Source: an uncultured Planctomycetia bacterium | Lineage (GTDB): Bacteria; Omnitrophota; Gorgyraeia; VGKH01; JBHPFN01 | NCBI GenBank assembly: GCA_964406665.1 | Contig: CAYOSQ010000001.1 | Location: 135,412 to 199,411 of the forward strand | Length of the DNA: 64,000 nt | Direction: 5' to 3' | Part shown: positions 3,099 to 62,613 of the stretch, one piece after another | Layout of the letters: each line of letters begins with the position of its first letter | Position numbering within the stretch: position 1 is the first letter of the stretch | Program-made: the position numbers and the translations under genes | Notes under the pieces: generated by a model | What the model was told of the DNA's origin: nothing | The model's database searches: none | What the model saw: the letters and a program-made list of their open reading frames with translations, nothing else

Positions 3099-4202
3099 AT
3101 GGATATCAATAAGAACCCAAAGAAATATCACAGGATAAAAAATTTACTTTCGTTCCTGGATATCATCTTACAGGGTTCAATTTTATTGATAATTACGTTA
3201 TCCGGATTCTCTCTTTTCTTGAAAAATCAGGTGTCTGGAGTGTTTGAGAACTTTTATTTAGTTGTTGCCGGATATATCTTTTTGCTTGCGACAATTTTTT
3301 ATTTTATTACATTGCCAATAAGCTTTTTTGAAAACTATTATTTAGAACATCAATATAATCTTTCAAATCAAAAAATAACAAGCTGGTTTAAAGATAGTCT
3401 AAAAGAAACTATCATTGGATTATTGATTTTGCTAATCTGTGGAGAGTTTGTCTATTTTATCTTACGTAATTTTTCGGAGATTTGGTGGATTTTTGCCGGA
3501 TTTTTCTGGATATTTATAAGTGTAGTGTTGGCAAAAATTACCCCAACGTTGTTGATACCGTTATTCTATAAGTATATTCCTTTGGAAAAAGAAGAGCTGA
3601 AGGATAAAATTTTAAAATTGTTCAATACGCGTAAAGTTAAGATTAAAGATGTATATGTAATTAAATTTTCGGAGAAAACTAAAAAAGCTAATGCCATGGT
3701 TTGCGGTTTTAGTAAAAACCGTAGGGTAATTTTAACCGACACGCTTATTAATAGTTTTTCCGACGAGGAGATTGAGCAAGTCGTTGCCCATGAACTAGGC
3801 CATTATTGTGGTAGAGACATAACGAAGTTACTTTTTTTAAATTCAGTATGTTGTTTCCTGGCATTTTTTGTTGCTGATAAGGTTATAAGCACAACAGCTT
3901 TAAGATTCGGTTTTAGCGGTTTAGATGATATTGCCTTTTTTCCGATTTTGCTGTTGAGTCTCGTTGGAGTTGCTTTTTTGCTTTTACCTTTTCGTAACTG
4001 CTTTTCCAGATTTTTAGAGAAACGAGCGGATTTGTTTAGTTTGCAACTTACCAAAAACTCCCCAGCATTTATATCAGCCATGAATAAATTAGGTAGTTTG
4101 AACCTTGCAGATTTTAAGCCTTCTATTTTAGTAGAAATTTTTCTCTACAATCATCCTCCGATTGGAAAGAGGATTAAATATGCAAAAGAATTTAAAATAT
4201 GA
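3099..4202 (+). CDS. M48-family (Ste24/HtpX-like) integral-membrane zinc metalloprotease
   Basis: Multi-TM N-terminus, HELGH zinc motif (VVAHELGHY), downstream glutamate (EKRAD) and the C-terminal NHPPIGKRI motif typical of M48. Confidence 0.7.
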   Translation: MDINKNPKKYHRIKNLLSFLDIILQGSILLIITLSGFSLFLKNQVSGVFENFYLVVAGYIFLLATIFYFITLPISFFENYYLEHQYNLSNQKITSWFKDSLKETIIGLLILLICGEFVYFILRNFSEIWWIFAGFFWIFISVVLAKITPTLLIPLFYKYIPLEKEELKDKILKLFNTRKVKIKDVYVIKFSEKTKKANAMVCGFSKNRRVILTDTLINSFSDEEIEQVVAHELGHYCGRDITKLLFLNSVCCFLAFFVADKVISTTALRFGFSGLDDIAFFPILLLSLVGVAFLLLPFRNCFSRFLEKRADLFSLQLTKNSPAFISAMNKLGSLNLADFKPSILVEIFLYNHPPIGKRIKYAKEFKI

Positions 4203-6151
4203 AAAAGAGAAAAAAACATATTAATTCGGATCGGCGCAAATATCTAAGACTTAAGAGTGTTTTTCCTGTTGAGTTTAGGATTATGTCAGATAAGGATGAA
4301 CCATGGCAACAGGGGTTTACTTCTGATATAAGCAAAGGAGGTATTTGTCTAAAAGTTAACAACGTAGATGATAAATGGTTTTCTCAGCTTCAAGAAAAAG
4401 GTGTGGATATATCTTTACAGATAAATATTCCTATGTCTGCCGCAGCTACGCGTGCGGTTGCAAAAATTGTCTGGGTTAAGAAGGTCAAAGTAGGTGCTCT
4501 AAATCAATGTTTAATGGGCTTAGAATTTTCAAAGATAGATTCAGGAAATATTAACGGTATTGTACGCTATGGTCGCTGGATGGTGTATTCTGGTAAGGTT
4601 GCCGTAATAGCAATCTTGTTTTTGGCAACTTTAGCAGGTAGCATATTTCTAAATAATCAAAAGATGAGAAAAGAAAATGAAACATTAGTCGAAAAGTTAG
4701 TTGATAGCGCTAAAGAGGAATCAAAAATAAACAAACAGTTAGAAATTTTAACTGAAAGCAATAACGAAGCAGCAGTTCAGATTGAATCTTATTTAAGTAA
4801 AGTATCTAATTTGGAGATTAGAATTAATGAAGTAAAAACGCAAAAAGATAAAGACATGCTTAAGCAATTAGATAGTTTGAAAAAAGAGCTAGCTATCGCT
4901 GAAGAAAAAAAAGAAACCTTAGAGTTAAAATTAGCAGGTTCTAAACAAAGAAAAGAGTTAATTGATAAGGTTTTATTTTCTATAAAGGAGGAAAAGAAAG
5001 ATTTGCGGAAGGCTATGATTGATAAAATGTATAATTGGCTTGTTGTTCATCAAAACCCTCGTACTGGATTAATAATCAGCTATGAGGGGGATAGGCGTCT
5101 TCGGGACTGGGCATTCATTTATGATCAAGCCTTGGCCTCTCAGGCGTATATTCTATTCGGTGATTATGATCATGCTGAGAAGGCGTTCAATTTTTTCTTA
5201 AGACAATCGCATAAACAAGGACAGTTTTCTGGTTTTGCCAATGCCTACTATGCTTCTACAAGTAACGTAGCAGAACATGCTGTACATTGTGGTCCAAATA
5301 TTTGGCTGGGGATATCTTTGCTTCATTATCAGAGAGCAACCTTAGATGCCACGTATCTTCCTTTGGCTAAGAAAATTGCTGACTGGCTTATCAGGATACA
5401 AGAGCAAGATCCTTCTGGAGGTTTACGCGGAGGTCCTTCAGTTAACTGGTTTGCAACTGAGCATAACCTGGATGGCTATGCATTCTTTAACATGTTATTT
5501 GAGATAACAAATGAGGCCAAATACAAAATAGCTAGAGATAAAATCCTAAGCTGGTTGATTACCCATGCTTATGACCGCAAAGAAATTCCGATTAACCGTG
5601 GTAAAGGAGATTCTACCGTAGCAACTGATACATATGCCTGGTCAATTGCAGCTATAGGACCTAAGAAGCTCAAGAGAATAAAGATGGACCCAGATGAAAT
5701 TATGGCGTTTGCAGAAGATAATTGTGGTGTTTTTGTAGAATATGAAAGACCTAACGGAGAAAAGGTTGATGTTGAGGGTTTTGATTTTGCCAAATATCGT
5801 AATATGCCCCGGGGTGGAGTCATCTCTTCCGAGTGGACCGCACAGATGGTATTATCTTTTAAGATAATGCAAGAATATCATTTGAACCAGAATAATTTTG
5901 ATAAAAGTGTTTATTATTCTAAAAAGTATACCCATTTCTTAAATGAACTTGAAAAGCTACTTATTTCATCGTCTTCTCCGACGGGTCAAGGGGAAGGATG
6001 TCTTCCTTACGCAACCGAGGATAATGTAGATACCGGTCATGGGTGGAGAACGCCTCAGGGTCGTACCACTGGTTCGGTCGCCGGAACAACGTATACAATA
6101 TTTGCTCAGAAAGGTTTTAATCCGTTAAAGTTTTCTAAAGATGAAAAGTAG
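4199..6151 (+). CDS. PilZ-domain c-di-GMP receptor fused to TM helix, long coiled coil and a C-terminal alpha/alpha-toroid (glycoside-hydrolase-like) domain
   Basis: N-terminus carries both PilZ signatures, RRKYLR (RxxxR) and DISKGG (DxSxGG). A hydrophobic helix (VAVIAILFLATLAGSIFL) follows, then about 150 aa of heptad-rich coiled coil and a roughly 370 aa Trp/Tyr-rich domain. Start overlaps the upstream gene's stop (ATGA). Confidence 0.75.
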   Translation: MKKRKKHINSDRRKYLRLKSVFPVEFRIMSDKDEPWQQGFTSDISKGGICLKVNNVDDKWFSQLQEKGVDISLQINIPMSAAATRAVAKIVWVKKVKVGALNQCLMGLEFSKIDSGNINGIVRYGRWMVYSGKVAVIAILFLATLAGSIFLNNQKMRKENETLVEKLVDSAKEESKINKQLEILTESNNEAAVQIESYLSKVSNLEIRINEVKTQKDKDMLKQLDSLKKELAIAEEKKETLELKLAGSKQRKELIDKVLFSIKEEKKDLRKAMIDKMYNWLVVHQNPRTGLIISYEGDRRLRDWAFIYDQALASQAYILFGDYDHAEKAFNFFLRQSHKQGQFSGFANAYYASTSNVAEHAVHCGPNIWLGISLLHYQRATLDATYLPLAKKIADWLIRIQEQDPSGGLRGGPSVNWFATEHNLDGYAFFNMLFEITNEAKYKIARDKILSWLITHAYDRKEIPINRGKGDSTVATDTYAWSIAAIGPKKLKRIKMDPDEIMAFAEDNCGVFVEYERPNGEKVDVEGFDFAKYRNMPRGGVISSEWTAQMVLSFKIMQEYHLNQNNFDKSVYYSKKYTHFLNELEKLLISSSSPTGQGEGCLPYATEDNVDTGHGWRTPQGRTTGSVAGTTYTIFAQKGFNPLKFSKDEK

Positions 6152-8972
6152 AATCAGAATATATTATCATTTTCAATTGTTTGGTTTGATCATAGCCGCT
6201 GTTATGTTTTTTTATTCATATGCATATGCTTATAAACAGCCGCATTATATTATTGACGCCACCTTAGATGTTTCCAAGCATGTTCTTCAGGCCAAGGAAA
6301 GGGTAACATTTACCAATAATATTGACAGAGAAATCAAAGAAGTATTCTTTCATATTTATCCCAATCGGAAATTTACTGATAAAGAAAAAGATTTTATGTT
6401 GCGTTACGGTGGATACTTCAAGGTGAATCTATATCCTGAAGGTTTTCAGAGTTCTAGCATGACAATTGATTCTATTAAAGAAAATGGAAAACACCTAGAT
6501 TTTGAGATTATTTCTGAAGATGAAACTATTTTGCGAATTGGCTTACCCCAGTCATTATCTAAGGGGAAGTCGGTTGACTTAGACATAGAGTTTTCAGTGG
6601 TTTTGCCTCATGCATATGGTAGGTTGGGTTGGAATGATAATGTAATTAGTCTTATGCGTTGGTATCCCATTCTTTCGGTTTTAGACGAGGAAGGATGGCA
6701 CAATTATCCTTTTTATCCTTATCATCAGCCATTTTTCTCTGATTCCGCCCGGTATCAAGTAAACTTAACAATTGCCAAAAATTATGTGGTTGCACATACA
6801 GGAAGCGTGCAGGAAGAATTTATAAATTCCGACGAAACAAAAACTATTAAAATAGATTCACAGCTGCCTGTGCGGGATTTTGCTCTTGCCGCCAGTCCTG
6901 ATTTCCGCATATTTTCACTAGAGCATAATGATGTAGAAATAAGATCATACTATTTGCCTGGAGATGATTTCCTTGGAAAAAAAGCAGCTGAGTTTTCTTT
7001 GGCTTTGATGGAATATTATGCTGACCGCTTTATTGATTATCCTTACAAGACATTTTCTATAGCTTCTACCTATCTAGGTTATGGAGGAAATCAATCTTCA
7101 GGAATTATTTTTATCGACACTCGAGTTAACAAACTTCCTAAATTCCTTCTACGATATTTTGATTTTCTTATTTCTCACGAGACAGGGCATCAATGGTTTT
7201 ATAATTTGGTAGGCTCTGATGAATATAAAGAGATGTGGATAGATGAGGGCATCAACTCTTATTTTATTTCAGAGTATTTAGAAGATAAATACGGTCCTGA
7301 TGCCCAAGTTATGATTTTACCTAAATGGCTTCAGCCCTTCGTTCCAAATTTTTCTTTTAAAAGTGGTAGAATCGTACGTTATTTTTACCTGGCTAAAAGA
7401 GGATTAGACAGGCCTATCTTAGGAAAGCTTTCTAGTTTTAAAGAACCAAGCAGCATTTTTGCTTTGGCTTACGGAAAAGGTTCTATTGTAATTGAGATGT
7501 TGCATTCTTTAGTTGGTGAAGAAGCTTTTGCAAGAATAATGAAACAATATTTTAATAAATATACTTTCAAAAATATTTCTGTTTCTGATTTTATCAGGAT
7601 TTGTGAAAAAGAAAGCGGTAAAGACTTAGATTGGTTTTTCGATCAGTGGCTTAATACAGATAAGACGTGCGACTATGCTGTTAATAAAGTAAATAAAAAC
7701 AAAGTTGTTTTAGAAAATCGCGGTGAGATAATTATGCCGGTTAAAACGGAAATTTATTTTTCTGATGGTTCAGTTTTGAAAGATTCTTGGAACGGAGAAG
7801 GAGAAAGTAAGGAAATAGAAATTTTAGAAACTAGTCGTATAGAAAAGATTGTGGTCGATCCTGATAAGGCGATGTTGGATTTAGATAGGACTAATAATTT
7901 TTGGCCACGCTTGTTTGAAACCAAAGCAGTTCCGCTTTACTACGCTGTATACGAAATCCCTGTAGTTTTACCTGAAGATTCATATAGCTTTATTTATGGT
8001 CCGGAATTTATGAAAAATAGTGTAGGTATGCGCGTGAGCTTGCAAAAGCCTTACGATAATAATTTAAGTCTATTTACCGGATATGATCTTAATTCCAGCG
8101 TAATAAAATCAGTACTGGGATTTGAACAGAGAAACTTATTTAATAAACAACTTGCCGGTGGAATTGAATTTTTCAGAGACGAAGATTTAAGTGGTAAAAA
8201 AGAGGATTTAGATGGCGGCAAAATTTATTTGCGACGAGAACTTTGGCCAGCAGCCTATGGATTAACAGAGGTCAACGATCACATTACTTTTTATCTTTTG
8301 CGTAACCGAAAATTTGAAGGAAGTTTTATTGCATCAGGCAGAGAGGATCAGGAAGATATTTCGTATTCTAGAAAAGATGAAGCCATTACAGGAATTGATT
8401 TTAGCTTAGATAGATCCGGACCGTATTTTGATCCCGATTCCGGATACAGAGCTAAAGTTACCTTAGAACATGCAGGACATTTTTTAGGTGGAAAAGAATC
8501 GTTTTCCAGAGGGACAGTTGATTTCACAGGATATCATGGATTTTTGCCAGAGCAAAAACTTGCACTGCATCTTAAGAGCGGATGGGGTTTTCCTTCGGAC
8601 AAAAATCTGTTTGAATTAGGCGGCGACGAAAGTTTAAGAGGGTATGGCCGCAAGGCAATGCGCGGATCCCGTTTTTTCTTAGGAAGCCTGGAATACCGCT
8701 TTCCTTTAATTAGACAAACAAATTTGCGTTTATTAGATAATATAATTTCCATTTCTGCTTTTCAAGGCGTTGCTTTTTTTGACGCTGGTAGAATATGGCA
8801 TGGAGATGTAGAAAAAAGTAATATTAAAAAAGATGCTGGTTTAGGTTTAAGGGTTCATGTTGATATTGGTTCTTATTTAGAGAAGCTTATTTTGCGAATT
8901 GATGTTGCCCAGGCGATTAATGAACCCAAAGAAGACCCGCATGTGTGGTTTGGAATAAGTCACGCATTTTAA
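6141..8972 (+). CDS. Fusion protein: M1-family (gluzincin) metallopeptidase domain plus C-terminal Omp85/D15-type outer-membrane beta-barrel
   Basis: Signal-peptide-like N-terminus. HETGH-X18-E (HETGHQWFYNLVGSDEYKEMWIDEG) is the exact M1 HEXXH-X18-E signature. The C-terminal 300 aa has alternating beta-strand character (LRGYGRKAMRGSRFFLGSLEYRFPL) and ends in ...GISHAF with a terminal Phe, typical of Omp85/BamA-family barrels. Confidence 0.7.
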   Translation: MKSRIRIYYHFQLFGLIIAAVMFFYSYAYAYKQPHYIIDATLDVSKHVLQAKERVTFTNNIDREIKEVFFHIYPNRKFTDKEKDFMLRYGGYFKVNLYPEGFQSSSMTIDSIKENGKHLDFEIISEDETILRIGLPQSLSKGKSVDLDIEFSVVLPHAYGRLGWNDNVISLMRWYPILSVLDEEGWHNYPFYPYHQPFFSDSARYQVNLTIAKNYVVAHTGSVQEEFINSDETKTIKIDSQLPVRDFALAASPDFRIFSLEHNDVEIRSYYLPGDDFLGKKAAEFSLALMEYYADRFIDYPYKTFSIASTYLGYGGNQSSGIIFIDTRVNKLPKFLLRYFDFLISHETGHQWFYNLVGSDEYKEMWIDEGINSYFISEYLEDKYGPDAQVMILPKWLQPFVPNFSFKSGRIVRYFYLAKRGLDRPILGKLSSFKEPSSIFALAYGKGSIVIEMLHSLVGEEAFARIMKQYFNKYTFKNISVSDFIRICEKESGKDLDWFFDQWLNTDKTCDYAVNKVNKNKVVLENRGEIIMPVKTEIYFSDGSVLKDSWNGEGESKEIEILETSRIEKIVVDPDKAMLDLDRTNNFWPRLFETKAVPLYYAVYEIPVVLPEDSYSFIYGPEFMKNSVGMRVSLQKPYDNNLSLFTGYDLNSSVIKSVLGFEQRNLFNKQLAGGIEFFRDEDLSGKKEDLDGGKIYLRRELWPAAYGLTEVNDHITFYLLRNRKFEGSFIASGREDQEDISYSRKDEAITGIDFSLDRSGPYFDPDSGYRAKVTLEHAGHFLGGKESFSRGTVDFTGYHGFLPEQKLALHLKSGWGFPSDKNLFELGGDESLRGYGRKAMRGSRFFLGSLEYRFPLIRQTNLRLLDNIISISAFQGVAFFDAGRIWHGDVEKSNIKKDAGLGLRVHVDIGSYLEKLILRIDVAQAINEPKEDPHVWFGISHAF

Positions 8973-9778: not shown

Positions 9779-10710
9779 AAGAAAAAGAATCCAAGAAAAA
9801 TAATGATTTTCGCTGTGGCTTTGTTGCCGTTGTGGGTAGGCCTAATTCTGGAAAGTCTACGCTGATTAATAAGATTTTAGGTAAGAAAATTGCCATTGTT
9901 ACCAGAGTGCCTCAAACAACCCGTAATGCTATACGCGCAATATACAATAGTAAAAATGCTCAAATAATATTTGTAGATACTCCGGGCATGCATGCGCCTA
10001 AAGATAGGCTGGGAAAATTAATGAACAGAACCGGCCAACAGACAGCGAATGACGCAGATGTTATATTACATTTGATGGATACATCCAAAGCTCCGGGAAA
10101 AGAAGAAGAGGTAATCGTCAAAGAGCTGGATAAGAAAAACAAACCAATTATCCTAGGCCTTAATAAAGTAGATTTGGAAGGAAAATATATTCAAGAATAT
10201 ATTGAATTATGGCAACGCATAACAGGCAAAGACATTAATAAATTAGGTAGTGAAATAATGCTAATGCCTTTATCTGGATTGACCGGAATACACATAAAAG
10301 AATTAATTGATGCTATAATTGATTTTCTACCAGAATCAGTTGCTTTGTATCCGCAAGATGCTGTTTCAGATTTTCCTGAGAGGCTTTTTATGGCTGAGAT
10401 TGTTCGAGAAAAGCTGTTTAATCTTTTAAGAGAAGAGATTCCTTTTGGCCTTAGCGTTAGCGTGGAAGAAGTGGAGGAGAGAAAGAAAAATATACTTGCT
10501 GTTTACATGGCGATAGTAGTTAGTAGGGAATCTCAGAAAAAGATTGTAATCGGGAAGAGAGGAAGCATATTAAAGAAGGCAGGGACGCAGGCTCGAAAAG
10601 AGCTTGAAAAGACGCTCAAGAGAAAAATATATTTAGAGCTTTATGTAAAGATTCGCAGGGACTGGAGAGAAAATACTCAAATATTACAAGAGTTAGGAGT
10701 TATTGATTGA
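9775..10710 (+). CDS. era: GTPase Era
   Basis: GFVAVVGRPNSGKSTLIN P-loop, DTPG, NKVD and a C-terminal KH domain. 311 aa. Confidence 0.9.
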   Translation: MKEKESKKNNDFRCGFVAVVGRPNSGKSTLINKILGKKIAIVTRVPQTTRNAIRAIYNSKNAQIIFVDTPGMHAPKDRLGKLMNRTGQQTANDADVILHLMDTSKAPGKEEEVIVKELDKKNKPIILGLNKVDLEGKYIQEYIELWQRITGKDINKLGSEIMLMPLSGLTGIHIKELIDAIIDFLPESVALYPQDAVSDFPERLFMAEIVREKLFNLLREEIPFGLSVSVEEVEERKKNILAVYMAIVVSRESQKKIVIGKRGSILKKAGTQARKELEKTLKRKIYLELYVKIRRDWRENTQILQELGVID

Positions 10711-10752: not shown

Positions 10753-13149
10753 TTATTCTCCAGCTGTATAAAGCCCAGCGGGATGATGTGAAAAATTATA
10801 GTCGTTATCTACCAAACGAATTGTTATGCTAGCAAAATACCCAGGAAGTTCTCCGGGAGGTAATACATCTGGAGTGTAACGTGTTTCGTATTGGAATATA
10901 TTGTTTGATGAACTCGGACCATGAGAAGTCATGTCCCACGGCCAGCCCGCAAGTCCTTCGCTTCTGCAGGGTGATCCGGGAAAAGCAGAAGTAAATTCTG
11001 GGTTAGTACATTTTCTGGATTTGTTCCAATCAAAGATAGGCCAGCTAGAACCCTCGTCAAATTCTTTCCATTCAAAGTTGTTGTTTTCCAGATTAATAAA
11101 AGAACCAACTACTTTCCTGGTATATCCTGATTCTCCCCATCTTTCTAGCACTGCAGGTGGGTATGCTCTATAGCCGACAATAGAAACATAGTATTCAACA
11201 ATACCATTGTCATCTTCTCCGGCAACAGGAGCCATCTCGTCTTCATATAGCATTTCCCAATGGCCTTCATGCCAATCTTCATCTTCTACATAAGGATAAT
11301 CTGGATTATGAATTGTGTAAGGCAGCCCTCCTTCTGTAATTCCTGCGATACGTTCCATTTCATCAAGAAAACTTTCAGATACCGTAAAAGCCCTTTTTGC
11401 AGCGATTATTGCTGAAGGCTGCCAGTCATGACCTGCTTCTCCAACGTTATAATCACCCATGAGATAGATATTTTCTCTGGAAACTGTTGTTAGCGGCGCT
11501 AGTAGTGAGCGAGCCTTTGCTAGTGCTAGGTCGTAATCAGAATAAACAACACCATTTTGTGGCCAGATTCCATCAGTCTTCATTCTGTAAACATCTAGAG
11601 AGATAATATTTTCTTTTAATTGCCAGCTGTTGGTGTCGTGAAAAGAACGGTTGCGAGCTATCGTTTTGCCGCTGACGGGGCTTACATAGTCTCCATCAGG
11701 CTCAGGGCATATTAATAGTGGTTCAGGTTGTCCTTCTATATGAACTTGTATAGCAATTTCTTTGCTACATTCTTCAAAATTATTTATATACATACCCTCT
11801 GACTGAGCTTGGTTGAAATAAGTTGCTGAGTTAATTCGCGGAGGAGTAATGTGTTCAGCACCGGTATTGTGTTCAAGTATAACACCATCTAAAGAAGTGG
11901 GCATCCAGTCTTGCCAAGCACCAAGCTGCTCATAAGTGTTCGTAAAGTTAGCAGGTATATCTACAGGACTAACTGGATTAGGGTAGTAGTAACGAGTACC
12001 GCCCCACCAAAGGCCACCGCTTGTTCTCCAGAAGAGATCCCAGTCATAACTAGAACTAAGCCTTGTCGGGATTCTTTCTTCTGGCTGCCCGTTGGCGTTA
12101 ATCCTTACAGAGCGGTGGTACCGTTCTCCCGGAGCAGCATCTCCATAAATATAGTAATCACTATACATGTAAAGATCTTCGTTAATTAAATTTGGGTCAT
12201 GTCCTGTGGCAAGCTCACAGTTTCCTTCAGGAAGAATACAGTTAGCAAAGTCGCCTTCACAAGTTGCATATAGCTCGTTGCCAGGGCCAGCAGGGAGCTC
12301 ACCATTAAATGCGGGATTATCCATAAATAGTCCACTTCTTTCGCCGTAGACTTTTCCATCATGATGATGATAGTAGTCGTATTCCTCACCATTTAAATTC
12401 TGTGGGTCCCACCAGGGGTCACGCATCCAGTAGAGTATGTCATTCCAAGAAGGAGCATCGCCAATGACGTTACCATATTGATCATATGCTACATCTTCAG
12501 GAGGCATATAGGCATATGTGTTGTAGCTGATATATTGAGCAGCTTCTAATGTATTGATATTTTGAATAACTACACTATCAGCAAATTTTAGATTTCCGTT
12601 TGTGTGAATACTACCGCCTTCAGCTAAAAAAGTTGTCCAACCCATATACATACTGTAAGGACTAAACCAAAAGTATTCATACAGAGTGCTGATTGATACT
12701 TTAGCAGCCATGAGGTATGAGTTATCGGTTGTATCGCTTACGCCTCTGGCTAGAATAGCGAACTGTCCGTCTCCTTCATCTAGGTAGACTTTGGTAAAGA
12801 ATTTATCGTTTAAGGCTTTGTATTCTCCTGTTCCACCATCATGTTCTGCAATTGTGTCTAAAAAAACATGTAGAGGAGTACCGTAATCATATAAGAAAGT
12901 AGGGTCGGTATCCTCGGGGTCGAAGTAATGCGTTTTCCAGCTTGTGCCGTGATTTATTAGTTCGTAGTAGGCACACTCGAATCCTTTTTCAGCATTATAC
13001 TTTGCGCTAAGATCGCCGTAATTTTCACGAGCAATCAAATCTTCATTAATACTTTTTGCAAAGATAGCAGCAGAGAGAATTGTAAGCACTATAATAGTTG
13101 CAAAAGAACCAACGAGTAAGAAACCACATTTATTTCTTAGTCTTATCAT
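10753..13149 (-). CDS. Large secreted PilX-N-like (non-canonical pseudopilin-type N-terminus) putative pilus tip or adhesin protein, copy 2
   Basis: N-terminal MIRLRNKCGFLLVGSFATIIVLTILSAAIF resembles the PilX_N or GspK-type hydrophobic anchor. The roughly 770-aa body is rich in Trp/Tyr/Asp. It is paralogous (about 35% identity, shared blocks such as HTNGNLKF and GDYNVGE) to the ORF at 14815..17115. Confidence 0.55.
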   Translation of the reverse strand: MIRLRNKCGFLLVGSFATIIVLTILSAAIFAKSINEDLIARENYGDLSAKYNAEKGFECAYYELINHGTSWKTHYFDPEDTDPTFLYDYGTPLHVFLDTIAEHDGGTGEYKALNDKFFTKVYLDEGDGQFAILARGVSDTTDNSYLMAAKVSISTLYEYFWFSPYSMYMGWTTFLAEGGSIHTNGNLKFADSVVIQNINTLEAAQYISYNTYAYMPPEDVAYDQYGNVIGDAPSWNDILYWMRDPWWDPQNLNGEEYDYYHHHDGKVYGERSGLFMDNPAFNGELPAGPGNELYATCEGDFANCILPEGNCELATGHDPNLINEDLYMYSDYYIYGDAAPGERYHRSVRINANGQPEERIPTRLSSSYDWDLFWRTSGGLWWGGTRYYYPNPVSPVDIPANFTNTYEQLGAWQDWMPTSLDGVILEHNTGAEHITPPRINSATYFNQAQSEGMYINNFEECSKEIAIQVHIEGQPEPLLICPEPDGDYVSPVSGKTIARNRSFHDTNSWQLKENIISLDVYRMKTDGIWPQNGVVYSDYDLALAKARSLLAPLTTVSRENIYLMGDYNVGEAGHDWQPSAIIAAKRAFTVSESFLDEMERIAGITEGGLPYTIHNPDYPYVEDEDWHEGHWEMLYEDEMAPVAGEDDNGIVEYYVSIVGYRAYPPAVLERWGESGYTRKVVGSFINLENNNFEWKEFDEGSSWPIFDWNKSRKCTNPEFTSAFPGSPCRSEGLAGWPWDMTSHGPSSSNNIFQYETRYTPDVLPPGELPGYFASITIRLVDNDYNFSHHPAGLYTAGE

Positions 13150-13185
13150 GATAATTACCTCTTTAGCTGTCTAGGAAAACACCAG

Positions 13186-14775
13186 CTAGTTTCTTAAAGT
13201 AACAGAGCTTGTAATAGAAAATTCAAAAGGACCTGACATCATAGAATCTTTTGATGCTTCAATGATTATATTGACAGAGTCCGGATTGCTATCTTTAGGA
13301 TTTCCGCTTTCATCAAAACCTTGGAAATCAACCCGTATTATATTATCTGCGACAACCGAGAATGTATAGTTGTCTATGCTTCCCATATCTTCGGCAAAAA
13401 CTAAATTCGAGAAGAATTTTTTTATAGCACAAAATGGAGGACAGCCTCCTGGGTCTCGACCCTGTGCTGGCAGATCTTTATTATGCACCAGATATCCATT
13501 AGCAAAGTAGTTGTGATATGGGTTTACTTCAATGTTGTAAACTATTATCTTTTCATCAACAGCTTCTATGCTGGTAATTGTTTCTTCTTTTCCTTCCTGG
13601 GTAAGAAGAATATCACCTTGTTTTAGCTTACCTGCTCTAACCCATGCACCATTAGCGAAGAAAGGATGTTCTGTTGTTACTTTGATGCCATCATTGATTA
13701 TCAGATACCCTTGGACCTCATGCATGAATACTTCTTTTACTGTGTCTCCTAGCTTAGTTCGAGAATTTTCACTATAAGAGGTTACTTTATCTCCTGTAAC
13801 TATATTTTCAATAAACTTGTTAGTGCCATCAGCCATAAGAATAGAAGTGCCGGGTAAGAGACAGCCTTTATTATGAGCTAATATGTTATCAGCATAATAT
13901 GTATGATAAGGGTTAACCTCAAGGTTGTATACCAACACAGGTTCTTCGATCCTTTCTATGCTGGTGATTGTTTCTTTAGAGCCGTTTACCTTGGTTAACT
14001 CATCACCTATATTAAGCAAGCCGATATCTACCCATCTACCTTTATGAAATACTGGGTGGTTAGGTGTTGCCTTGATGCGACCATTGATTAAAAGATAGTT
14101 ATCTTCTTCATGAATAAATGTTTCCACTACCTTATCAGACTTATTTTTACCAGATTCCTGATCATAGGCTAATACAGTGTCTCCTACTTTAATTGCTTCA
14201 ATATCTTTAGTTGAACCATCAGCTAAAAGAATAGGGGTACCTGCGAGAAAACAAGGATCGCATTCACCGCAGTCTAATTCACAAGTATTACAGTCTTCTC
14301 CAATCTCTGGTTCGCAGCCTTTGATGCCACAATGGTTAGTTGCTATTAAGCGCATAAGTCTTCCAGCGTTCGCGGAAGAAAAATTACTATGGGGTACTAA
14401 ATATACAACTTCTTCATTAAGAATACCATCAGCGCCCCATTTAATTTCTCCATAGGGATCTTCTTTATAATATGTGCCCGTGATAGGATCGTCAGTAATC
14501 TGCGGTGTCTGTAATTTTATAAGATGTCCGATACAGGTATTAACGTGTTCTCCGGTACACTCTTCAATAAAAACATGACCGGAATCTGATTGTTCTAGCT
14601 CTTTGACCATGCGTTCCATTGAGTAGCGGGCCTTCTGTTGTAGGTCAACCATTGAAGAACTTCTAATCCAGGTATTTCTTCCTATTATAATAGTACCGAT
14701 AACAATACCAAGTATAAATATTGCTATAACAACAGTTGCCATAGTTTCAGAAAGGGTAAATGCTTTTCTGTTCAT
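13186..14775 (-). CDS. Prepilin-type N-terminal domain protein with Cys-rich repeats and two tandem Hint (bacterial intein-like, BIL) domains, copy 2
   Basis: N-terminus MNRKAFTLSETMATVVIAIFILGIV is a type IV pilin-like leader plus hydrophobic helix, with Ala at -1 and a conserved Glu+5. A Cys-rich EGF-like segment (CGIKGCEPEIGEDCNTCELDCGECDPC) follows. Two Hint modules each have an N-terminal Cys (CFLAGTPIL, CLLPGTSIL), a TxxH block (TPNHPVF, TEHPFF) and a terminal HN (LAHN, LVHN), then Lys rather than a nucleophile. Confidence 0.7.
   Translation of the reverse strand: MNRKAFTLSETMATVVIAIFILGIVIGTIIIGRNTWIRSSSMVDLQQKARYSMERMVKELEQSDSGHVFIEECTGEHVNTCIGHLIKLQTPQITDDPITGTYYKEDPYGEIKWGADGILNEEVVYLVPHSNFSSANAGRLMRLIATNHCGIKGCEPEIGEDCNTCELDCGECDPCFLAGTPILLADGSTKDIEAIKVGDTVLAYDQESGKNKSDKVVETFIHEEDNYLLINGRIKATPNHPVFHKGRWVDIGLLNIGDELTKVNGSKETITSIERIEEPVLVYNLEVNPYHTYYADNILAHNKGCLLPGTSILMADGTNKFIENIVTGDKVTSYSENSRTKLGDTVKEVFMHEVQGYLIINDGIKVTTEHPFFANGAWVRAGKLKQGDILLTQEGKEETITSIEAVDEKIIVYNIEVNPYHNYFANGYLVHNKDLPAQGRDPGGCPPFCAIKKFFSNLVFAEDMGSIDNYTFSVVADNIIRVDFQGFDESGNPKDSNPDSVNIIIEASKDSMMSGPFEFSITSSVTLRN
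13468..13868. repeat. About 400 bp direct repeat, roughly 95% identical to 17436..17836 (Hint-domain cassette shared by the two pilin-BIL genes)
   Basis: Direct sequence comparison shows long identical runs, e.g. gcagatctttattatgcaccagatatccattagcaaagtag. Antisense ORFs at 13568..13777 and 17536..17730 translate almost identically. Confidence 0.8.
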
Positions 14776-14814
14776 TCCTTGTCCCCCCTTGTTAGTTTAT
14801 ATGATATCACAGTA

Positions 14815-17115
14815 TTAATAATATTTAACATAATAATAATTGAATTCAGAGAGAGGTATTTCCATGTAGATTTGTTCGGTGAAACCAACATAATCTTCTG
14901 GAGGATACTCGCCTGTTTCATTGTATGATTTATCATATTTGAATTCGTTATTTGCAGCATAAGGACCAATGGCACCCATTGAACTTGGCCAGCCAGGGTT
15001 TGTGCGTTCTGGTCTGGCGACAGTGTTATCATATTGGCCTGGATTTCCAAAATCTTCTTCACTGATTCTTATCTTGGAACCAAGGACAGTTCTTTTACGC
15101 TGCGTCCAATTGCTAGGAGTGTTATTTAAATCTCCCACATCTTGATAAAAGCTCCAGTTTTCTAAAACCTTGGGTTCATAAGCACGGTGACCGATAGCAG
15201 AAATATTATAGGTATAGTCTTTATCTACATTATTGGCAACTGTTCCGTCATATATCGGCAGAGTTAACGGAGGAGGTTTTTCCAGCTCTTGGCATACCTC
15301 TTCTTTTGGATCGCAAGGCGGAGGATAGGCCTCTGGGTTATCTTTTAAATTAGCCATCCAGTTGTATCTATCACCAGGGTCTGCTGTTAAATCCCAGTTA
15401 GGTTCATAGGGATATTCAATATGAAATCTGGTTATTGGTAGAGCACTAGGATAGTTAAACACATCAGATAAAGTATATAAATCCATTGCACAGATTGCTG
15501 CAGAAGGTTGTTTATCAGTTGCGAGATCACCAATGTTATAATCTCCTTTTAAATGCAAGTTTTTCTCAGTTATCCAGGTAACCCCACCTTCTGGTAAAAC
15601 TTCGGCATTATCAACAACTATATTAGCTTCGGAATAGATTAATCCGTTTCCAGGAGAATTTCCGGATGCAAGCAGTTCGGAAAAATTAAATTCTGTTACG
15701 ATGTTTTCTTGCATGCTGTGAGTGTTTATAAAAGTTTTAATTTCTGCCACAAGGTGTCCGCCTATCCATACTTCTCCTGAGGCATCAGATGGATATGAAA
15801 CGCGCGCAATCTGTACGCTGATTTCAGTTCCGTCTTCGTTTGACCCGATATATATACCTGCATCTTGAGCTGCATCTGCATAGTTTGAAGCGGCTACTGA
15901 CAAGGGTTCAATGTATTCTGCTCCAGAAGAGTAATCTTTTATAACTCCGGCTAGATTTGGTTCTGAAGCTGTATAATCAGATAGAGCTTGGGCTTGTGAA
16001 GCAAAAGAAGTGTTTAGCCATTTAACTGTTATTTCTGATTCTGGGAATCCCCAGGCTTCAGTAATGCTCCAGTATTTGTTTATGGTGTATGGTGCCTCTA
16101 ACCTGTTGGGAAGTCTGGTTTCGTTAATCCAGGCAATCCTGTCATCGTCAGCATAGTTTTCTGGGGCTTCATCAGGAAGGGGAGGATCTGGGTCAATATC
16201 AGGATCCCAGATTGCCTGAGCGGCATTGCGAATATTATACTTATCTCCATACACATGTCCATAAGATCTATTTTCGTATGAATACTCTGAAAACATTCCT
16301 CCTGAATATGTTTCTAAAGATTCTCCGGAATCTGGCTCGTAATTTGCTGAAGTCCAAGGTGCATGATTATATTTATAGTAGCTTCTCCAGGTTTCATGTG
16401 GGCAGTCTGTACATCCGGGAGTTTCATCCATGAAGTCATCGATGAATTCATAGGGAAGCCATGACTTGGCATAATATTGAATATAATCTTTTGCAGAAAA
16501 TTCACTAACATTAAAAATTTCAACGGAGTTCTGAAATATGAAGCTTCCATTAGTATGCATCCTTCCACCGTCAGCAAGCCATGTTCTACTACTTAAATAA
16601 TATGTTGAAGGAGAAAACAAAAAATAATCATAAAGAGATTGTGAGATAGTTTTAGACATAAATATTCTTTCAGTGCCTTGATTTTCACTTAGTCCTTTGG
16701 AATATATAAAATAGTCATCACTTGAAGGGCTTTTAAAAACTTTTACAGCAAAGTCTAGCCCTAACCCAGATCCTTTAGAAATATAGCATCCGTAGGTAGG
16801 ACTTTCTGGATCTTCATCTATCGCGGTTAATCCAGATAGCGTTACCGTTGGAACAGTGCCTGTGGGAACAAGCAGGCCATCTGCCTTTACCGTATGAGTA
16901 ACCCAATTGAGACTATGTGAAATTTCATATCTTGCCAAATTCAATCCGGCATCTGCAGCACACTTAGATTCTATATTACTTTGTTGCCTGCGTATGTTTA
17001 AGTTGTCGTTTGCTATTCTAAAAAAGAATGCTGTGGCCAATACAGAAAGTGCTGTAACAACAATGTAAGTGCCAATGAGTACAAAACCCTTTTTGTTAAG
17101 TATTTTTACGTTCAT
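14815..17115 (-). CDS. Large secreted PilX-N-like putative pilus tip or adhesin protein, copy 1
   Basis: N-terminal MNVKILNKKGFVLIGTYIVVTALSVLATAFFF (PilX_N-like). 766 aa and paralogous to 10753..13149. Follows the pilin-BIL gene by 27 nt on the same strand. Confidence 0.55.
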   Translation of the reverse strand: MNVKILNKKGFVLIGTYIVVTALSVLATAFFFRIANDNLNIRRQQSNIESKCAADAGLNLARYEISHSLNWVTHTVKADGLLVPTGTVPTVTLSGLTAIDEDPESPTYGCYISKGSGLGLDFAVKVFKSPSSDDYFIYSKGLSENQGTERIFMSKTISQSLYDYFLFSPSTYYLSSRTWLADGGRMHTNGSFIFQNSVEIFNVSEFSAKDYIQYYAKSWLPYEFIDDFMDETPGCTDCPHETWRSYYKYNHAPWTSANYEPDSGESLETYSGGMFSEYSYENRSYGHVYGDKYNIRNAAQAIWDPDIDPDPPLPDEAPENYADDDRIAWINETRLPNRLEAPYTINKYWSITEAWGFPESEITVKWLNTSFASQAQALSDYTASEPNLAGVIKDYSSGAEYIEPLSVAASNYADAAQDAGIYIGSNEDGTEISVQIARVSYPSDASGEVWIGGHLVAEIKTFINTHSMQENIVTEFNFSELLASGNSPGNGLIYSEANIVVDNAEVLPEGGVTWITEKNLHLKGDYNIGDLATDKQPSAAICAMDLYTLSDVFNYPSALPITRFHIEYPYEPNWDLTADPGDRYNWMANLKDNPEAYPPPCDPKEEVCQELEKPPPLTLPIYDGTVANNVDKDYTYNISAIGHRAYEPKVLENWSFYQDVGDLNNTPSNWTQRKRTVLGSKIRISEEDFGNPGQYDNTVARPERTNPGWPSSMGAIGPYAANNEFKYDKSYNETGEYPPEDYVGFTEQIYMEIPLSEFNYYYVKYY

Positions 17116-17141
17116 TTTACCCCTCGCTTTTAGATGGCAAT

Positions 17142-18419
17142 TTATTCATTTACATTTACTGCTGAATGTAATGTTACCTCTAGCTCTCTACCGAGTAGAA
17201 ATATATTCTTTTTAGCCAAAATAGTTATTTTTATTACTTCCGGATTTGCTGCATCCGGTATTGCTGTAAATGTTATCCTATCTATATTTTGAGTGAGAAC
17301 ACGTTCTCCATAAAGCATGTCCGCATATGCGCATGGTGTTAAAAATATTGATCTAAAGAATTTATTAAGCGATGTCCAATCACCACAGTCTGGTGGGCAA
17401 TCGCCACCCCGGAGTTCCATCTGATAGTGCATCGCGGGCAGATCTTTATTATGCACCAGATATCCATTAGCAAAGTAGTTATGATATGGGTTTACTTCAA
17501 TGTTGTAAACTATTATCTTCTCATCAACAGCTTCTATGCTGGTAATTGTTTCTTCTTTTTCTTCCTGGGTAAGAAGAATATCACCTTGTTTTAGCTTACC
17601 TGCTTTAACCCATGCACCATTAGCGAAGAAAGGATGTTCTGCTGTTGTTTTGATATTATCATTGATTATCAGATATCCTTGGACCTCATGCATGAATACT
17701 TCCTTTACTATATCTTCCAGCTTAACTTGAGAGTCTTCATCATAAGAGGTTACTTTATCTCCTGTAACTATATCTTCAATAAATTTGTTAGTGCCATCAG
17801 CCATAAGAATAGAGGTGCCTGGCAAGAGACAGCCGGGATGGCAGGGACCGCAATCTGTTGAACAGGTACTGCAGGTTTCTCCTAGCTCTGGCTCACATAT
17901 TTCATTGCCGCAATGAGCAGGATTACATTCTCCGCAGTCTGGAATGCATTCATCGCAAATTTCGTAAGGGGTTTCGCATACCTCGTTTCCACAAACTGGA
18001 TCGATTGGTTGTTTTCTTACTAAACTGCCTTGATTTTCTCCTTGAGCCGGAACATAGTAGTAACCAAATTCATCAGGCCATCCATCAATACCCCATTTGA
18101 TTTGACCGGATTCATCATAATATGTTCCTGCTACTGGATCGTTGGTTATAATCGGGGCCTGAAATTCAATTACATCTCCTACACATTCAGTTTCTATGCA
18201 TCCAGTAACTGTGATGTGATCTGCATCTAGAGATTTTAATTCGTTTACAATTCTATCCATTGCAAACCGTGTAGATTGTGTCAGATCAGCATATGCAGAA
18301 TTAGTTAAGAATGTATCGCGACCAACTACAAGGGTTGAGGTAATCATTAAACCAATACCAACACAAATCGCCGTTACAACTAATCCTTCAAAAAGTGTGA
18401 AAGCTTTTCTATTCATCAC
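17142..18419 (-). CDS. Prepilin-type N-terminal domain protein with Cys-rich repeats and one Hint (BIL) domain, copy 1
   Basis: N-terminus MMNRKAFTLFEGLVVTAICVGIGLM (prepilin-like). Long Cys-rich stretch (CGNEVCETPYEICDECIPDCGECNPAHCGNEICEPELGETCSTCSTDCGPCHPGC). Hint domain CLLPGTSILMADG...TAEHPFF...LVHNKD. AGGAGG RBS upstream. First gene downstream of the riboswitch. Confidence 0.7.
   Translation of the reverse strand: MMNRKAFTLFEGLVVTAICVGIGLMITSTLVVGRDTFLTNSAYADLTQSTRFAMDRIVNELKSLDADHITVTGCIETECVGDVIEFQAPIITNDPVAGTYYDESGQIKWGIDGWPDEFGYYYVPAQGENQGSLVRKQPIDPVCGNEVCETPYEICDECIPDCGECNPAHCGNEICEPELGETCSTCSTDCGPCHPGCLLPGTSILMADGTNKFIEDIVTGDKVTSYDEDSQVKLEDIVKEVFMHEVQGYLIINDNIKTTAEHPFFANGAWVKAGKLKQGDILLTQEEKEETITSIEAVDEKIIVYNIEVNPYHNYFANGYLVHNKDLPAMHYQMELRGGDCPPDCGDWTSLNKFFRSIFLTPCAYADMLYGERVLTQNIDRITFTAIPDAANPEVIKITILAKKNIFLLGRELEVTLHSAVNVNE
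17436..17836. repeat. About 400 bp direct repeat, roughly 95% identical to 13468..13868
   Basis: See the paired repeat entry. Covers the Hint domain of copy 1. Confidence 0.8.
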
Positions 18420-18439
18420 AACCTCCTTTTAAATATCAT

Positions 18440-18572
18440 CTTAAGATTAAAAAACCCATCCAACTATAATGGATGGGCTCAATGCCACATTTCTTGTTGG
18501 CAACCCGGCTATCCTTTTACAAGGATCCTTGGTTTTGTGCCCCACCCTTACAGATGGTTTACCCTTTTTCAA
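18440..18572 (-). promoter_or_regulatory. c-di-GMP-I (GEMM) riboswitch aptamer plus intrinsic-terminator expression platform in the 5' leader of the pilin-BIL/PilX-like operon
   Basis: Minus-strand RNA reads GGGUAAACCAUCUGUAAGGGUGGGGCACAAAACCAAGGAUCCUUGUAAAAGGAUAGCCGGGUUGCC. The Vc2 GEMM consensus is GGCAAACCAUUCGAAAGAGUGGGACGCAAAGCC...AGCGGGGUUACC; the GNRA tetraloop, the GGGxCxCAAAxCC core and the AGCCGGGUUxCC 3' element are conserved. Immediately 3' is GAGCCCAUCC-AUUAUAGUU-GGAUGGG-UUUUUU (7-bp GC-rich stem plus U6) about 20 nt before the RBS and start codon. Confidence 0.8.
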
Positions 18573-18601
18573 CAAGCTATTTTACTATATCTTGTAGTCA
18601 A

Positions 18602-18629
18602 AGTATAGCATAAAAGCCAGTTTTTTCAA
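18602..18629 (-). promoter_or_regulatory. Sigma70-like promoter (TTGAAA-N16-TATACT) driving the riboswitch-led operon
   Basis: Minus strand reads CTTGAAAAAACTGGCTTTTATGCTATACTTTGAC. The -35 is TTGAAA, the spacer is 16 nt and the -10 is TATACT. The predicted TSS is about 25 nt upstream of the aptamer. Confidence 0.4.
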
Positions 18630-38424: not shown

Positions 38425-38535
38425 TCCGCAGTTTGCGGAGAGGCAAACCATTTGTAAGAGTGGGACGCAAAGCCACGGGTCTCACAATTAATAATTAATT
38501 GTGTTTATTTGAGGCGGCCGGGTTGCCGAAAGGTA
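38425..38535 (+). promoter_or_regulatory. c-di-GMP-I (GEMM) riboswitch in the 5' leader of the 2900-aa giant protein gene
   Basis: RNA reads ...CUCCGCAGUUUGCGGAGAGGCAAACCAUUUGUAAGAGUGGGACGCAAAGCCACGGGUCUCAC...GAGGCGGCCGGGUUGCCGAAAGG. Its 5' half matches the V. cholerae Vc2 aptamer GGCAAACCAUUCGAAAGAGUGGGACGCAAAGCC at 30 of 33 positions, and the 3' half conserves GGCCGGGUUGCCGA. The putative translation start is about 110 nt downstream. Confidence 0.8.
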
Positions 38536-48540: not shown

Positions 48541-48567
48541 ATTTAACTTATCAGTAGGAGTAAAAAT

Positions 48568-50288: not shown

Positions 50289-50290
50289 TT

Positions 50291-51981: not shown

Positions 51982-51992
51982 ATTATAAATAT

Positions 51993-53986: not shown

Positions 53987-53988
53987 TA

Positions 53989-62603: not shown

Positions 62604-62613
62604 GGAGTAATTA

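Follow-up and report, generated by a model that had tools for sequence, protein, structure and literature searches.

The tip pilin ComZ of Thermus thermophilus consists of a GspK-like pilin domain with an inserted β-solenoid of the ice-binding-protein (IBP) type; it binds the neighboring minor pilin PilA2 and has been argued to fit the pilus only at its tip (PMC6561018). Type-A bacterial intein-like (BIL) domains, which have no nucleophile at the +1 position, form an N-terminal thioester and cyclize their terminal Asn, and the flanks are then religated via the freed amino group or, more often, plainly cleaved (PMC4031507). In Clostridioides difficile, riboswitches for cyclic di-GMP (c-di-GMP) control the pilin gene pilA1, as a class II ON switch, and flgB, where Cd1 is a class I OFF switch of the terminator type (PMC6366702). 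In this study, we describe a locus that has likenesses to all three systems, located on the minus strand (18416..10753) of a 64,000-nucleotide stretch of DNA from an uncultured bacterium of the Omnitrophota (GenBank assembly GCA_964406665.1, contig CAYOSQ010000001.1, positions 135,412 to 199,411). The whole stretch is referred to below as the window, and its own numbering is used. Four co-directional genes form two paralogous two-gene modules, each with a small and a large pilin-like protein; the small proteins contain Hint domains, and a c-di-GMP-I aptamer precedes the first gene. Our preferred reading, to which we assign a probability of roughly 0.6, is that the locus is an operon under c-di-GMP control that encodes interchangeable modules for the tip of a type IV filament, either a type IV pilus or a pseudopilus like that of type II secretion systems (T2SS), whose assembly machine is encoded elsewhere, and that its GspJ-like pilins are the hosts of optional, mobile BIL domains.

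Overall organization and relatives of the locus

In the first module (type A), gene 1 (17142..18416, minus strand) encodes a small protein of 424 residues counted from the ATG codon, the listing of open reading frames (ORFs) using a GTG that lies one codon farther upstream, and gene 2 (14815..17115, minus strand) encodes a large protein of 766 residues. In the second module (type B), the small protein of 529 residues is encoded by gene 3 (13186..14775, minus strand), an ORF with matches to PT-HINT, and the large protein of 798 residues by gene 4 (10753..13149, minus strand). The genes are separated by 26, 39, and 36 nt, and a purine-rich stretch that resembles a ribosome-binding site lies upstream of every one of them. 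The small proteins are 41% identical in their N-terminal parts (BLASTP E 4e-73), and the large proteins are 26 to 28% identical over their full length (E 2e-56). A preliminary description of this DNA, made from the letters alone, had taken the unit for two copies of one two-gene module, and this paralogy bears it out; the minus-strand genes, Hint domains, promoter, aptamer, and terminator that it named are all present where it had placed them. Independently assembled contigs (European Nucleotide Archive [ENA] and JGI) encode one protein identical to that of gene 2, a 423-residue near-identical copy of the gene 1 protein, and a 474-residue fragment that matches gene 3. Since the same proteins recur in these independent assemblies, an assembly artifact is ruled out.

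Every close homologue is from either a Candidatus Omnitrophota genome or a metagenome contig. The co-occurrence counts given here rest on eight related, Omnitrophota-like contigs, whose loci range from one module to four and from no Hint domain to three; contigs are designated by L numbers and single related proteins by P numbers. A search at the level of the whole locus returned, among genome contigs, only the contig of a single amplified genome that was already known, and none among metagenome contigs. In the window, the locus is flanked on one side by genes for a PAC2-family protein, YjeF_N, and HhH-GPD and on the other by era, an ORF of 85 residues, and a nitroreductase gene, and the same flanks bracket the same kinds of genes in L001, L002, L005, L006, L007, L008/L009, and L011. 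The slot between the PAC2 gene and era holds one module in L005, L007, L008, and L011, two in the window, and at least four in L001, and the order A, B (B, B) of the modules is conserved.

The type A large proteins (gene 2 and its orthologues) share 42 to 49% mutual identity and the type B large proteins (gene 4 and its orthologues) 35 to 52%, gene 4 being 39 to 46% identical to the type B orthologues in L001 and L002. Because the window proteins resemble orthologues of their own type in other genomes (39 to 49%) more than types A and B resemble each other (26 to 31%), the duplication is ancient. The tandem duplication noted in the preliminary description is thus real, but it is old, and only a Hint segment was copied recently; a recent tandem duplication of whole modules is excluded by the A and B orthologues in other genomes.

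Predicted structure of the large proteins

Genes 2 and 4 matched no Pfam or NCBIfam family. Word-index homology searches returned just 2 to 7 matches per query, and the family became visible only in an exhaustive profile search, which yielded 375 cluster representatives at an E value of ≤1e-3 and 91 at ≤1e-30. At the N-terminus, a basic leader runs into the motif G|F(V/L)L(I/V), and a segment of hydrophobic residues that lacks Glu at +5 follows; the Gly at position -1 is nearly invariant among 52 members. The leaders of gene 2 (...NKKG|FVLIG) and gene 4 (...NKCG|FLLVG) both have Gly at -1 and Phe at +1 and lack Glu at +5, as is the case in GspK and PilX.

Structure prediction, which had been proposed as a check on the large proteins, gave a confident AlphaFold2 (AF2) model of gene 2 with a ComZ/GspK-like fold (52-sequence alignment; mean predicted local distance difference test [pLDDT] score of 90.2 and predicted template modeling score of 0.84). 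The model contains an N-terminal helix of 59 residues (residues 9 to 67), a sheet of the pilin type, and a long run of short strands that forms a β-solenoid-type domain. ComZ is the best overall match in the fold comparison, followed by the β-solenoids of ice-binding proteins (approximately 10.8), tapirins (approximately 8), GspK (7.7), and XcpX (6.5). The gene 2 protein is therefore predicted to be a GspK-like pilin domain without Glu at +5 that carries an extra inserted domain. As a full-length paralogue, gene 4 is predicted to have the same fold. The second gene of each module had been called PilX-like; the fold upholds a large protein of the pilus-tip type, but the PilX_N profile (PF14341) was matched by neither window protein even at an E value of ≤1 and by just one of the 52 family members (E 2.5e-4).

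Pilin core of the small proteins

An alignment of seven small proteins displays a conserved core of approximately 215 residues with one hypervariable site, which directly follows the "GRLxR" strand. This site is empty in the 218-residue protein of L001; it is occupied by Cys-rich modules alone in the 253-residue protein of L001 and the 334-residue protein of L002, by Cys modules together with one, two, or three Hint domains in the window proteins and the 397- and 662-residue proteins of L001, and by Hint domains without Cys modules in L006, L007, L008, and P0015. The leaders of the window proteins resemble class III leaders (MNRKA|FTLFE in gene 1 and MNRKA|FTLSE in gene 3, both with Ala at -1), and no member of the family departs from Phe at +1 and Glu at +5. 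In relatives of the small protein, the leader is the canonical KGFTL(V/M)E, or G|FTL(V/M/F)E overall, and the N_methyl profile (PF07963; cut-off, 21.2 bits) is passed with 32.6 bits (P0008 of L011), 26.9 bits (L007), and 24.1 bits (L008); the same L008 chain also matches PT-HINT with 51.9 bits. The Hint-less paralogues are named "PilW family protein" by NCBI.

In the AF2 model of gene 1, the core has a pLDDT of approximately 80 and comprises a helix of residues 8 to 62, the N-terminal strands, and four C-terminal strands. The long N-terminal helix packs on an antiparallel sheet, as expected for a pilin fold of the GspJ type, and the folds closest to this modeled core are the T2SS pseudopilins GspJ, XcpW, and EpsJ. 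The relatives that pass N_methyl, the invariant Phe and Glu residues, and the fold match to GspJ together support the assignment of the small proteins as minor pilins of the GspJ/PilW type.

Several observations weigh against this assignment and against a place for the modules in a filament. The N_methyl profile gives 12.0 bits with gene 1 and no match with gene 3, and the residue at -1 in both window proteins is Ala and not Gly, so that cleavage by a prepilin peptidase is an assumption. The gene 1 model, built from a 9-sequence alignment, has an overall pLDDT of 53, and since only its core is moderately confident, the match to GspJ rests on approximately 115 residues. For the large protein, the likeness to ComZ is in the fold alone, with no sequence similarity, and searches of PDB sequences with the family profiles returned only marginal matches to geopilin N-termini. 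Among the 26 window proteins scanned, a set that leaves aside ORFs 1007-1492, 47581-55477, and 61522-63435, there is no pilus motor, platform protein, secretin, prepilin peptidase, or T2SS component; the preliminary description had likewise noted that no motor, secretin, or prepilin peptidase gene lies nearby. Ala is the one substitution at -1 that PilD is known to tolerate in the Pseudomonas pilin. The pilin-like N-termini claimed for the small proteins are upheld through the relatives, the residues at +1 and +5, and the fold, but not through the profile scores of the window proteins themselves.

The Cys-rich segments at the insertion site are made up of modules with six Cys residues in the spacing C-x4-C-x6/7-C-x2-C-x3-C-x2-C. 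Gene 1 has two such modules (residues 142 to 195; 17832..17993, minus strand), which adjoin its Hint domain on the upstream side, and gene 3 has one (14254-14331, minus strand) upstream of its first Hint domain. The motif CGxxxCEPxxGExCxxCxxDCGxC, of approximately 24 to 27 residues, recurs at this site of the pilins, whether Hint domains are present or absent, L002 (2507-3511) included. The modules matched no Pfam family, and no EGF family was matched even at an E value of ≤10 with the isolated segment; hence, the "EGF-like" label that these repeats had been given was dropped.

Filament context

Each module would thus pair a minor pilin of the GspJ/PilW type, which has Glu at +5, with a pilin of the ComZ/GspK type, which does not. 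By analogy with GspI-GspJ-GspK and ComZ-PilA2, the small and large proteins may form a J-K-type heterodimer that primes the filament, and the β-solenoid of the large protein would then cap the filament and bind a ligand, for which DNA, a polysaccharide, and the surface of a host or of prey are candidates. In L004, a gene 3' of the pair passes N_methyl with 25.4 bits. Distant homologues of both proteins, a J-like protein of 178 residues and a large protein of 796 residues, are encoded in L013 (3793-9391) with neither Hint domain nor riboswitch. The L013 pair directly follows genes for a stand-alone MshEN protein, a T2SSF (PilC/GspF) platform protein, and another pilin, and it neighbors the gene for a GGDEF protein of 1331 residues.

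The closest folds of the pilin domains (in the small protein GspJ, XcpW, and EpsJ, in the large one GspK and XcpX) could also be those of a T2SS pseudopilus, in which a GspJ-GspK tip expels substrates and no extended adhesive or DNA-binding pilus is made; the T2SSF gene next to the L013 pair fits either system. We consider such a pseudopilus unlikely, as the best overall match of the large protein is ComZ, a tip pilin of a competence pilus, and the minor pilins of the Thermus pilus are themselves T2SS-like (PMC6561018). Moreover, a 500-residue solenoid in up to four versions suits a ligand-binding tip better than a piston, and type IVa pilus genes are widespread in the phylum, being reported as common in all classes of Omnitrophota (PMC10066038).

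Hint domains

The window contains exactly three Hint copies, as judged by tblastn. The Hint of gene 1 (residues 196 to 323; 17448..17831, minus strand) has 128 residues, with Cys1, a TAEH sequence in block B, a C-terminal VHN, and Lys at +1. In gene 3, Hint 1 (residues 175 to 302; 13870..14253, minus strand) is preceded by C-D-P before Cys1 and ends in AHN, after which the residues K-G lead to Cys1 of Hint 2 (residues 305 to 432; 13480..13863, minus strand), a recent copy of the gene 1 Hint. The Pfam family PT-HINT matches gene 1 with one domain (E 2.8e-19) and gene 3 with two (E 2.2e-41), in agreement with the one or two Hint domains per small protein reported in the preliminary description. 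The window Hints end in ...GYLVHN and ...NILAHN, for which TIGR01443 intein_Cterm gives 17.4 and 21.8 bits (cut-off, 15.6).

Thirteen Hints were examined, three from the window and 10 from relatives, all of which have Cys1, a TxxH motif, and a (V/A)HN end. Ten of the 13 are exactly 128 residues long, and in most of the 13 TxxH is at position 63 to 66. At +1, the window Hints without exception have Lys; the residue found there in the relatives is K, G, R, or A, with Ser in two. These features match the published definition of type-A BIL domains, so that the window Hints are best described as type-A BIL-like, optional domains and not as inteins. A canonical intein was rejected since both the +1 nucleophile and the endonuclease are absent: the +1 residue is Lys, a domain of 128 residues leaves no room for an endonuclease, and the host is an exported, variable pilin.

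The top Pfam match, PT-HINT, and the NCBI label "polymorphic toxin-type HINT domain-containing protein" on P0005 and P0011 would also be expected if the small proteins were polymorphic toxins whose Hint frees a C-terminal toxin. That explanation has been rejected, and we grant it only a very slight chance, because the stretch of approximately 100 residues that comes after the Hint can be aligned with the C-terminal β-strands of the Hint-less PilW-like paralogues, being the conserved C-terminal part of the pilin core, and because the gene that follows is in every case that of the large pilin. In the model, the residues after the Hint fold back onto the pilin core; no toxin family was matched, and no small immunity-like gene is adjacent.

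In the proposed arrangement, the 6-Cys modules and the 128-residue Hints would occupy one surface loop of the J-type pilin, between two β-sheets. The intact motifs and a ratio of nonsynonymous to synonymous changes (pN/pS) of 0.36 between the two recent copies lead us to infer that the Hints undergo autocatalytic cleavage or splicing. After export, they most likely would process themselves through a thioester at Cys1 and cyclization of the C-terminal Asn, followed by religation or cleavage. The pilin that results would correspond to the paralogues that have no Hint. Activity outside the cytoplasm is presumed here, and it might consist in splicing, cleavage, or something else. Several Hints have a Cys three to five residues before Cys1 (CDPC, CNLC, and CHPGC; window positions 14254-14262 and 17832-17846, and L001), and this upstream Cys is absent from the Hints of L006, L007, L008, and P0015. 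A Cys so close to Cys1 resembles the disulfide "redox trap" of some inteins.

Mobility and possible roles of the Hint domains

The gene 1 Hint and Hint 2 of gene 3 share a segment of 401 nt with 93% nucleotide and 91% amino acid identity. The segment begins with the residue that precedes Cys1 and ends five residues beyond His-Asn, and the flanking pilin sequences are approximately 41% identical at the amino acid level. Judging from these limits, this Hint was recently copied between the two genes. Between Hint 1 of gene 3, a type B host, and Hint 1 in the L001 pilin of type A, the identity is 72%, whereas the cores of these two hosts are just 31% identical; the histories of the Hints and their hosts thus disagree. 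The alignment with Hint-less paralogues places zero to three Hints at the single insertion site in both paralogues and orthologues, and approximately half of the sampled family members keep a Hint. In sequence comparisons, therefore, the Hints behave as optional modules of variable copy number that probably move among paralogous pilin genes by recombination. Tandem arrays of two or three Hints would be odd for a purely selfish element and speak against this simple form of our reading.

Two related proteins depart from the usual arrangement. In P0007 (122-1702 of L010, a related metagenome scaffold), another small-pilin N-terminus of approximately 140 residues (…NSGISLVEIL…) is fused at Hint 1 to the Hints and C-terminus of gene 3, and the gene lies upstream of a frameshifted gene 4 orthologue. 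Either Hint-mediated recombination produced P0007, or the assembly is chimeric across the repeated Hint. In P0008 (L011, 5101-7020), the pilin core is complete and is followed by two Hints, each with Cys-rich modules before it, and the usual insertion site has only a Cys module.

The arrays of two or three Hints and the C-terminal appending in P0008 suggest dosage or valency, which raises the question of whether they have been domesticated and do work in the pilus tip instead of being passengers. In such a case, the Cys1 thioester might be resolved by an outside nucleophile, so that a covalent bond would link the pilin to a partner protein or to the surface of a host or of prey, or a regulated cleavage, perhaps under redox control via the Cys at -3/-4, might release or activate the tip. 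The catalytic residues are intact in all 13 Hints, the domains are conserved above their hosts (72% versus 31% for gene 3 and the L001 type A pilin), the pN/pS value is 0.36, several copies have the Cys near Cys1 (CDPC, CNLC, and CHPGC), and approximately half of the sampled family retains a Hint. However, intact catalysis is equally expected of a selfish element that needs excision, the flanking Cys modules are absent in L006, L007, L008, and P0015, and an acceptor would be hypothetical. The conserved core is the same in paralogues and orthologues that lack a Hint, so that the pilin needs no Hint to work. For these reasons, we regard domestication as doubtful and prefer optional mobile modules.

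A more specific proposal is that of a reactive tip, in which an external nucleophile, in place of water or the C-fragment, would resolve the Cys1 thioester of the J-type pilin after export and weld the tip complex covalently to a molecule on the host or prey surface or to the large partner, comparable to thioester-domain adhesins and to the cholesterylation of Hedgehog. A disulfide between Cys(-3) and Cys1 could gate the reaction, arrays of two or three Hints would allow each tip several attempts, and c-di-GMP would set the timing. We mention this proposal as a speculation with little probability.

Promoter, aptamer, and terminator of the leader

Upstream of gene 1 lies a promoter-like site of the sigma-70 type (18602..18629, minus strand), in which TTGAAA and a TG-extended TATACT are separated by a 16-nt spacer (10 of 12 consensus matches). 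In this AT-rich region, promoter-like matches occur at the chance frequency (28 versus 26.6 expected). The site is counted only because its sequence and position are conserved in the relative L001, where the promoter hexamers are identical and lie at the same distance from the aptamer.

A c-di-GMP-I (GEMM-I) aptamer, including P1, occupies 18493..18576 (minus strand). The Rfam model RF01051 matches 18573..18496 over its full length (model positions 1 to 87) with 61.5 bits, compared with a gathering score of 35, and an E value of 1.3e-9; it is the top-scoring family of clan CL00126 for this segment. P1 is formed by CUUGUUG (18576-18570) and CAACAAG (18499-18493), and the first hairpin has a GUAA tetraloop. 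An intrinsic terminator follows at 18446..18480 (minus strand), whose arms GAGCCCAUCCA and UGGAUGGGUUU form an 11-bp stem with a 7-nt loop and a U-run. It was detected at 18480..18452 in a terminator scan and is also present in the minimum free energy (MFE) fold, with a z-score of -3.5.

Seven of the eight related contigs include the region upstream of the first module. In the seven aligned related leaders, 94% of the alignment cells in P1, the first hairpin, and the terminator are paired, compared with 29 to 55% for partner-shifted controls, and there are four compensatory pairs in these three helices, two of which are in the terminator and the others in P1 and the first hairpin. A CCCAUYC/GGRAUGGG hairpin with a T-run is found 3' of the aptamer in all seven. 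The aptamer itself exceeds the Rfam threshold in four of the seven upstream regions (L001, L004, L008, and L006). Divergent aptamers with insertions were recognized in L007 (37 bits) and, by eye, in L011, where a GEMM-I-like aptamer with large insertions falls under the Rfam threshold; no aptamer was found in the upstream region of L005. L006 has two c-di-GMP-I aptamers (7902-7992 and 10307-10390), one per unit, and the first of its units consists of a large protein only, without a small pilin gene. Most related loci therefore have the gene pair together with a GEMM riboswitch, and the conserved aptamer and terminator with compensatory changes in the terminator helix indicate, as had been proposed, that the unit is probably riboswitch-gated.

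Predicted polarity of the switch

The 3' strand of the first aptamer hairpin (GGGUGGGGC; 18537..18547, minus strand) is a candidate anti-terminator strand whose alternative partner is the 5' arm of the terminator (18480-18471). In transcripts that end before the 3' arm of the terminator, GGGUGGG of the aptamer pairs with CCCAUCC of the terminator, and this anti-terminator fold is the MFE fold of the truncated transcript (-38.2 kcal/mol, versus -31.5 kcal/mol when the aptamer is forced). The pairing is predicted in six of the seven related leaders, and the helix is 92% paired across the leaders. The aptamer and the terminator do not overlap and coexist in the MFE fold of the leader. As predicted by folding, the geometry of the leader is that of an OFF switch. 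Transcription from the sigma-70-type promoter would enter the aptamer and then the terminator. When c-di-GMP is low, pairing between the 3' strand of the first hairpin and the 5' arm of the terminator would let the polymerase read through, and bound c-di-GMP would lock the aptamer, so that the terminator forms and the operon is OFF. Two results are unfavorable to this scheme: no compensatory change was found when covariation was sought in the anti-terminator helix across the leaders, and in the full-length leader the fold with aptamer and terminator lies just 3.3 kcal/mol below the anti-terminator fold. Because of the missing compensatory change and this small margin, the OFF polarity stays a prediction.

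The lack of covariation behind the anti-terminator also leaves some room for an ON switch, in which c-di-GMP would promote read-through, as at C. difficile pilA1, and the modules would be made in the surface-attached state with high c-di-GMP. Adhesive pili are commonly up-regulated by c-di-GMP, and class I aptamers work either way (PMC6366702). An ON switch is nevertheless the less probable of the two polarities, and we hold it only tentatively, since the aptamer and the terminator are both in the MFE fold without overlap, and the sole predicted competitor of the terminator also breaks the aptamer, which is the geometry of an OFF switch. A contrasting ON geometry is displayed by the second aptamer of the window, where a terminator arm lies over the 3' strand of the aptamer.

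This second c-di-GMP-I aptamer (38432-38530, plus strand; 66.1 bits) is located upstream of an ORF (38647-47349, plus strand) that encodes a protein of 2900 residues without a Pfam domain; the 5' arm of its predicted terminator overlaps the 3' strand of the aptamer, an ON-type arrangement. Because the geometries of the two leaders appear opposite, the two loci may be regulated reciprocally, which suggests a switching between pilus tips and the 2900-residue surface protein.

Neighboring genes

Three further plus-strand genes of the window are mentioned here. A protein of 943 residues (6141-8972) unusually combines Peptidase_M1 with an Omp85 β-barrel, and its gene adjoins the locus also in L002, L008, and L011. 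The ORF at 4199-6151 encodes a protein of 650 residues with an N-terminal PilZ domain, and that at 30100-33531 a PAS/GAF-GGDEF-HD-GYP protein of 1143 residues.

Comparison with known systems

Three outcomes had been set beforehand as unfavorable to the preliminary description, i.e., ordinary signal peptides, Hint blocks without the Hint fold, and a lack of relatives or an assembly artifact, and none of them occurred. Its interpretation is partly supported: the core is correct, and corrections are needed for the EGF repeats, PilX_N, the age of the duplication, and the precedent of ComZ-PilA2. It had also regarded the architecture as undescribed. This stands for the small protein, as the literature searched contains no description of a Hint or BIL domain within a pilin, but not for the large protein, which is not unprecedented because ComZ paired with PilA2 has been described in Thermus (PMC6561018).

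If the Hints are active, they would be, as far as we found, the first autoprocessing (BIL/intein-like) domains reported inside a type IV pilin and would bring the chemistry of protein splicing to a filament subunit that is exported. The matched empty-site paralogues, the tandem arrays, and the clear recent transfer from gene to gene offer a natural system for work on inteins and BIL domains. The ComZ-like tip-pilin family (375 cluster representatives), with its GspJ-like partners and swappable cassettes, was unannotated before. As the Omnitrophota are uncultured, mostly ultra-small, and thought to be host dependent, the cassettes are candidate attachment determinants, and c-di-GMP is a directly testable regulatory input for them.

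The structural analogue of the large protein and its partner is ComZ-PilA2 of T. thermophilus (PDB 6qvi and 6qvf; PMC6561018). There is no detectable sequence similarity to that pair, and the large proteins here have 770 to 840 residues, compared with 518 residues in the crystallized ComZ chain. In addition, the pair is present in one to four diverged copies per locus in a riboswitch-controlled operon, and the small partner is GspJ-like with Hint and Cys inserts. In comparison with GspI-GspJ-GspK and PilV-PilW-PilX (PDB 3ci0 and 5vtm), the window lacks a third gene of the GspI/PilV type, the inserted domain is a β-solenoid and not the α-domain of GspK, and the Pfam families are unmatched. In the modular type IV pilins of Raynaud et al. 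2021 (PMC8179133), as in the proteins described here, a pilin carries a grafted non-pilin domain, probably at the tip; however, the grafted part here is an autoprocessing-type Hint inside the pilin fold and not a C-terminal binding module. The three supplementary text files of that study, which are short and may be incomplete, contain no Hint or intein term.

According to the account of Amitai 2003 and Dassa 2004 given in PMC4031507, together with the structures 2lwy and 6tmm in the PDB, the Hints here share with type-A BIL/PT-HINT domains a length of approximately 130 residues, Cys1, TxxH, blocks F/G with a His-Asn end, and the absence of a +1 nucleophile, and in that account such domains also occur in secreted, variable bacterial proteins. 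Unlike those domains, the ones here have a type IV minor pilin as the host, are inserted within its fold without a downstream toxin domain, and form tandem arrays of up to three that are flanked by 6-Cys modules. Finally, the leader resembles those of the c-di-GMP-controlled pilus and flgB genes of C. difficile (PMC6366702) in that an aptamer and an intrinsic terminator are found in the 5' leader. In contrast to pilA1, the aptamer here is of class I and its predicted polarity is OFF, the genes under its control encode minor-pilin tip modules and not a major pilin, and the organism belongs to the Omnitrophota.

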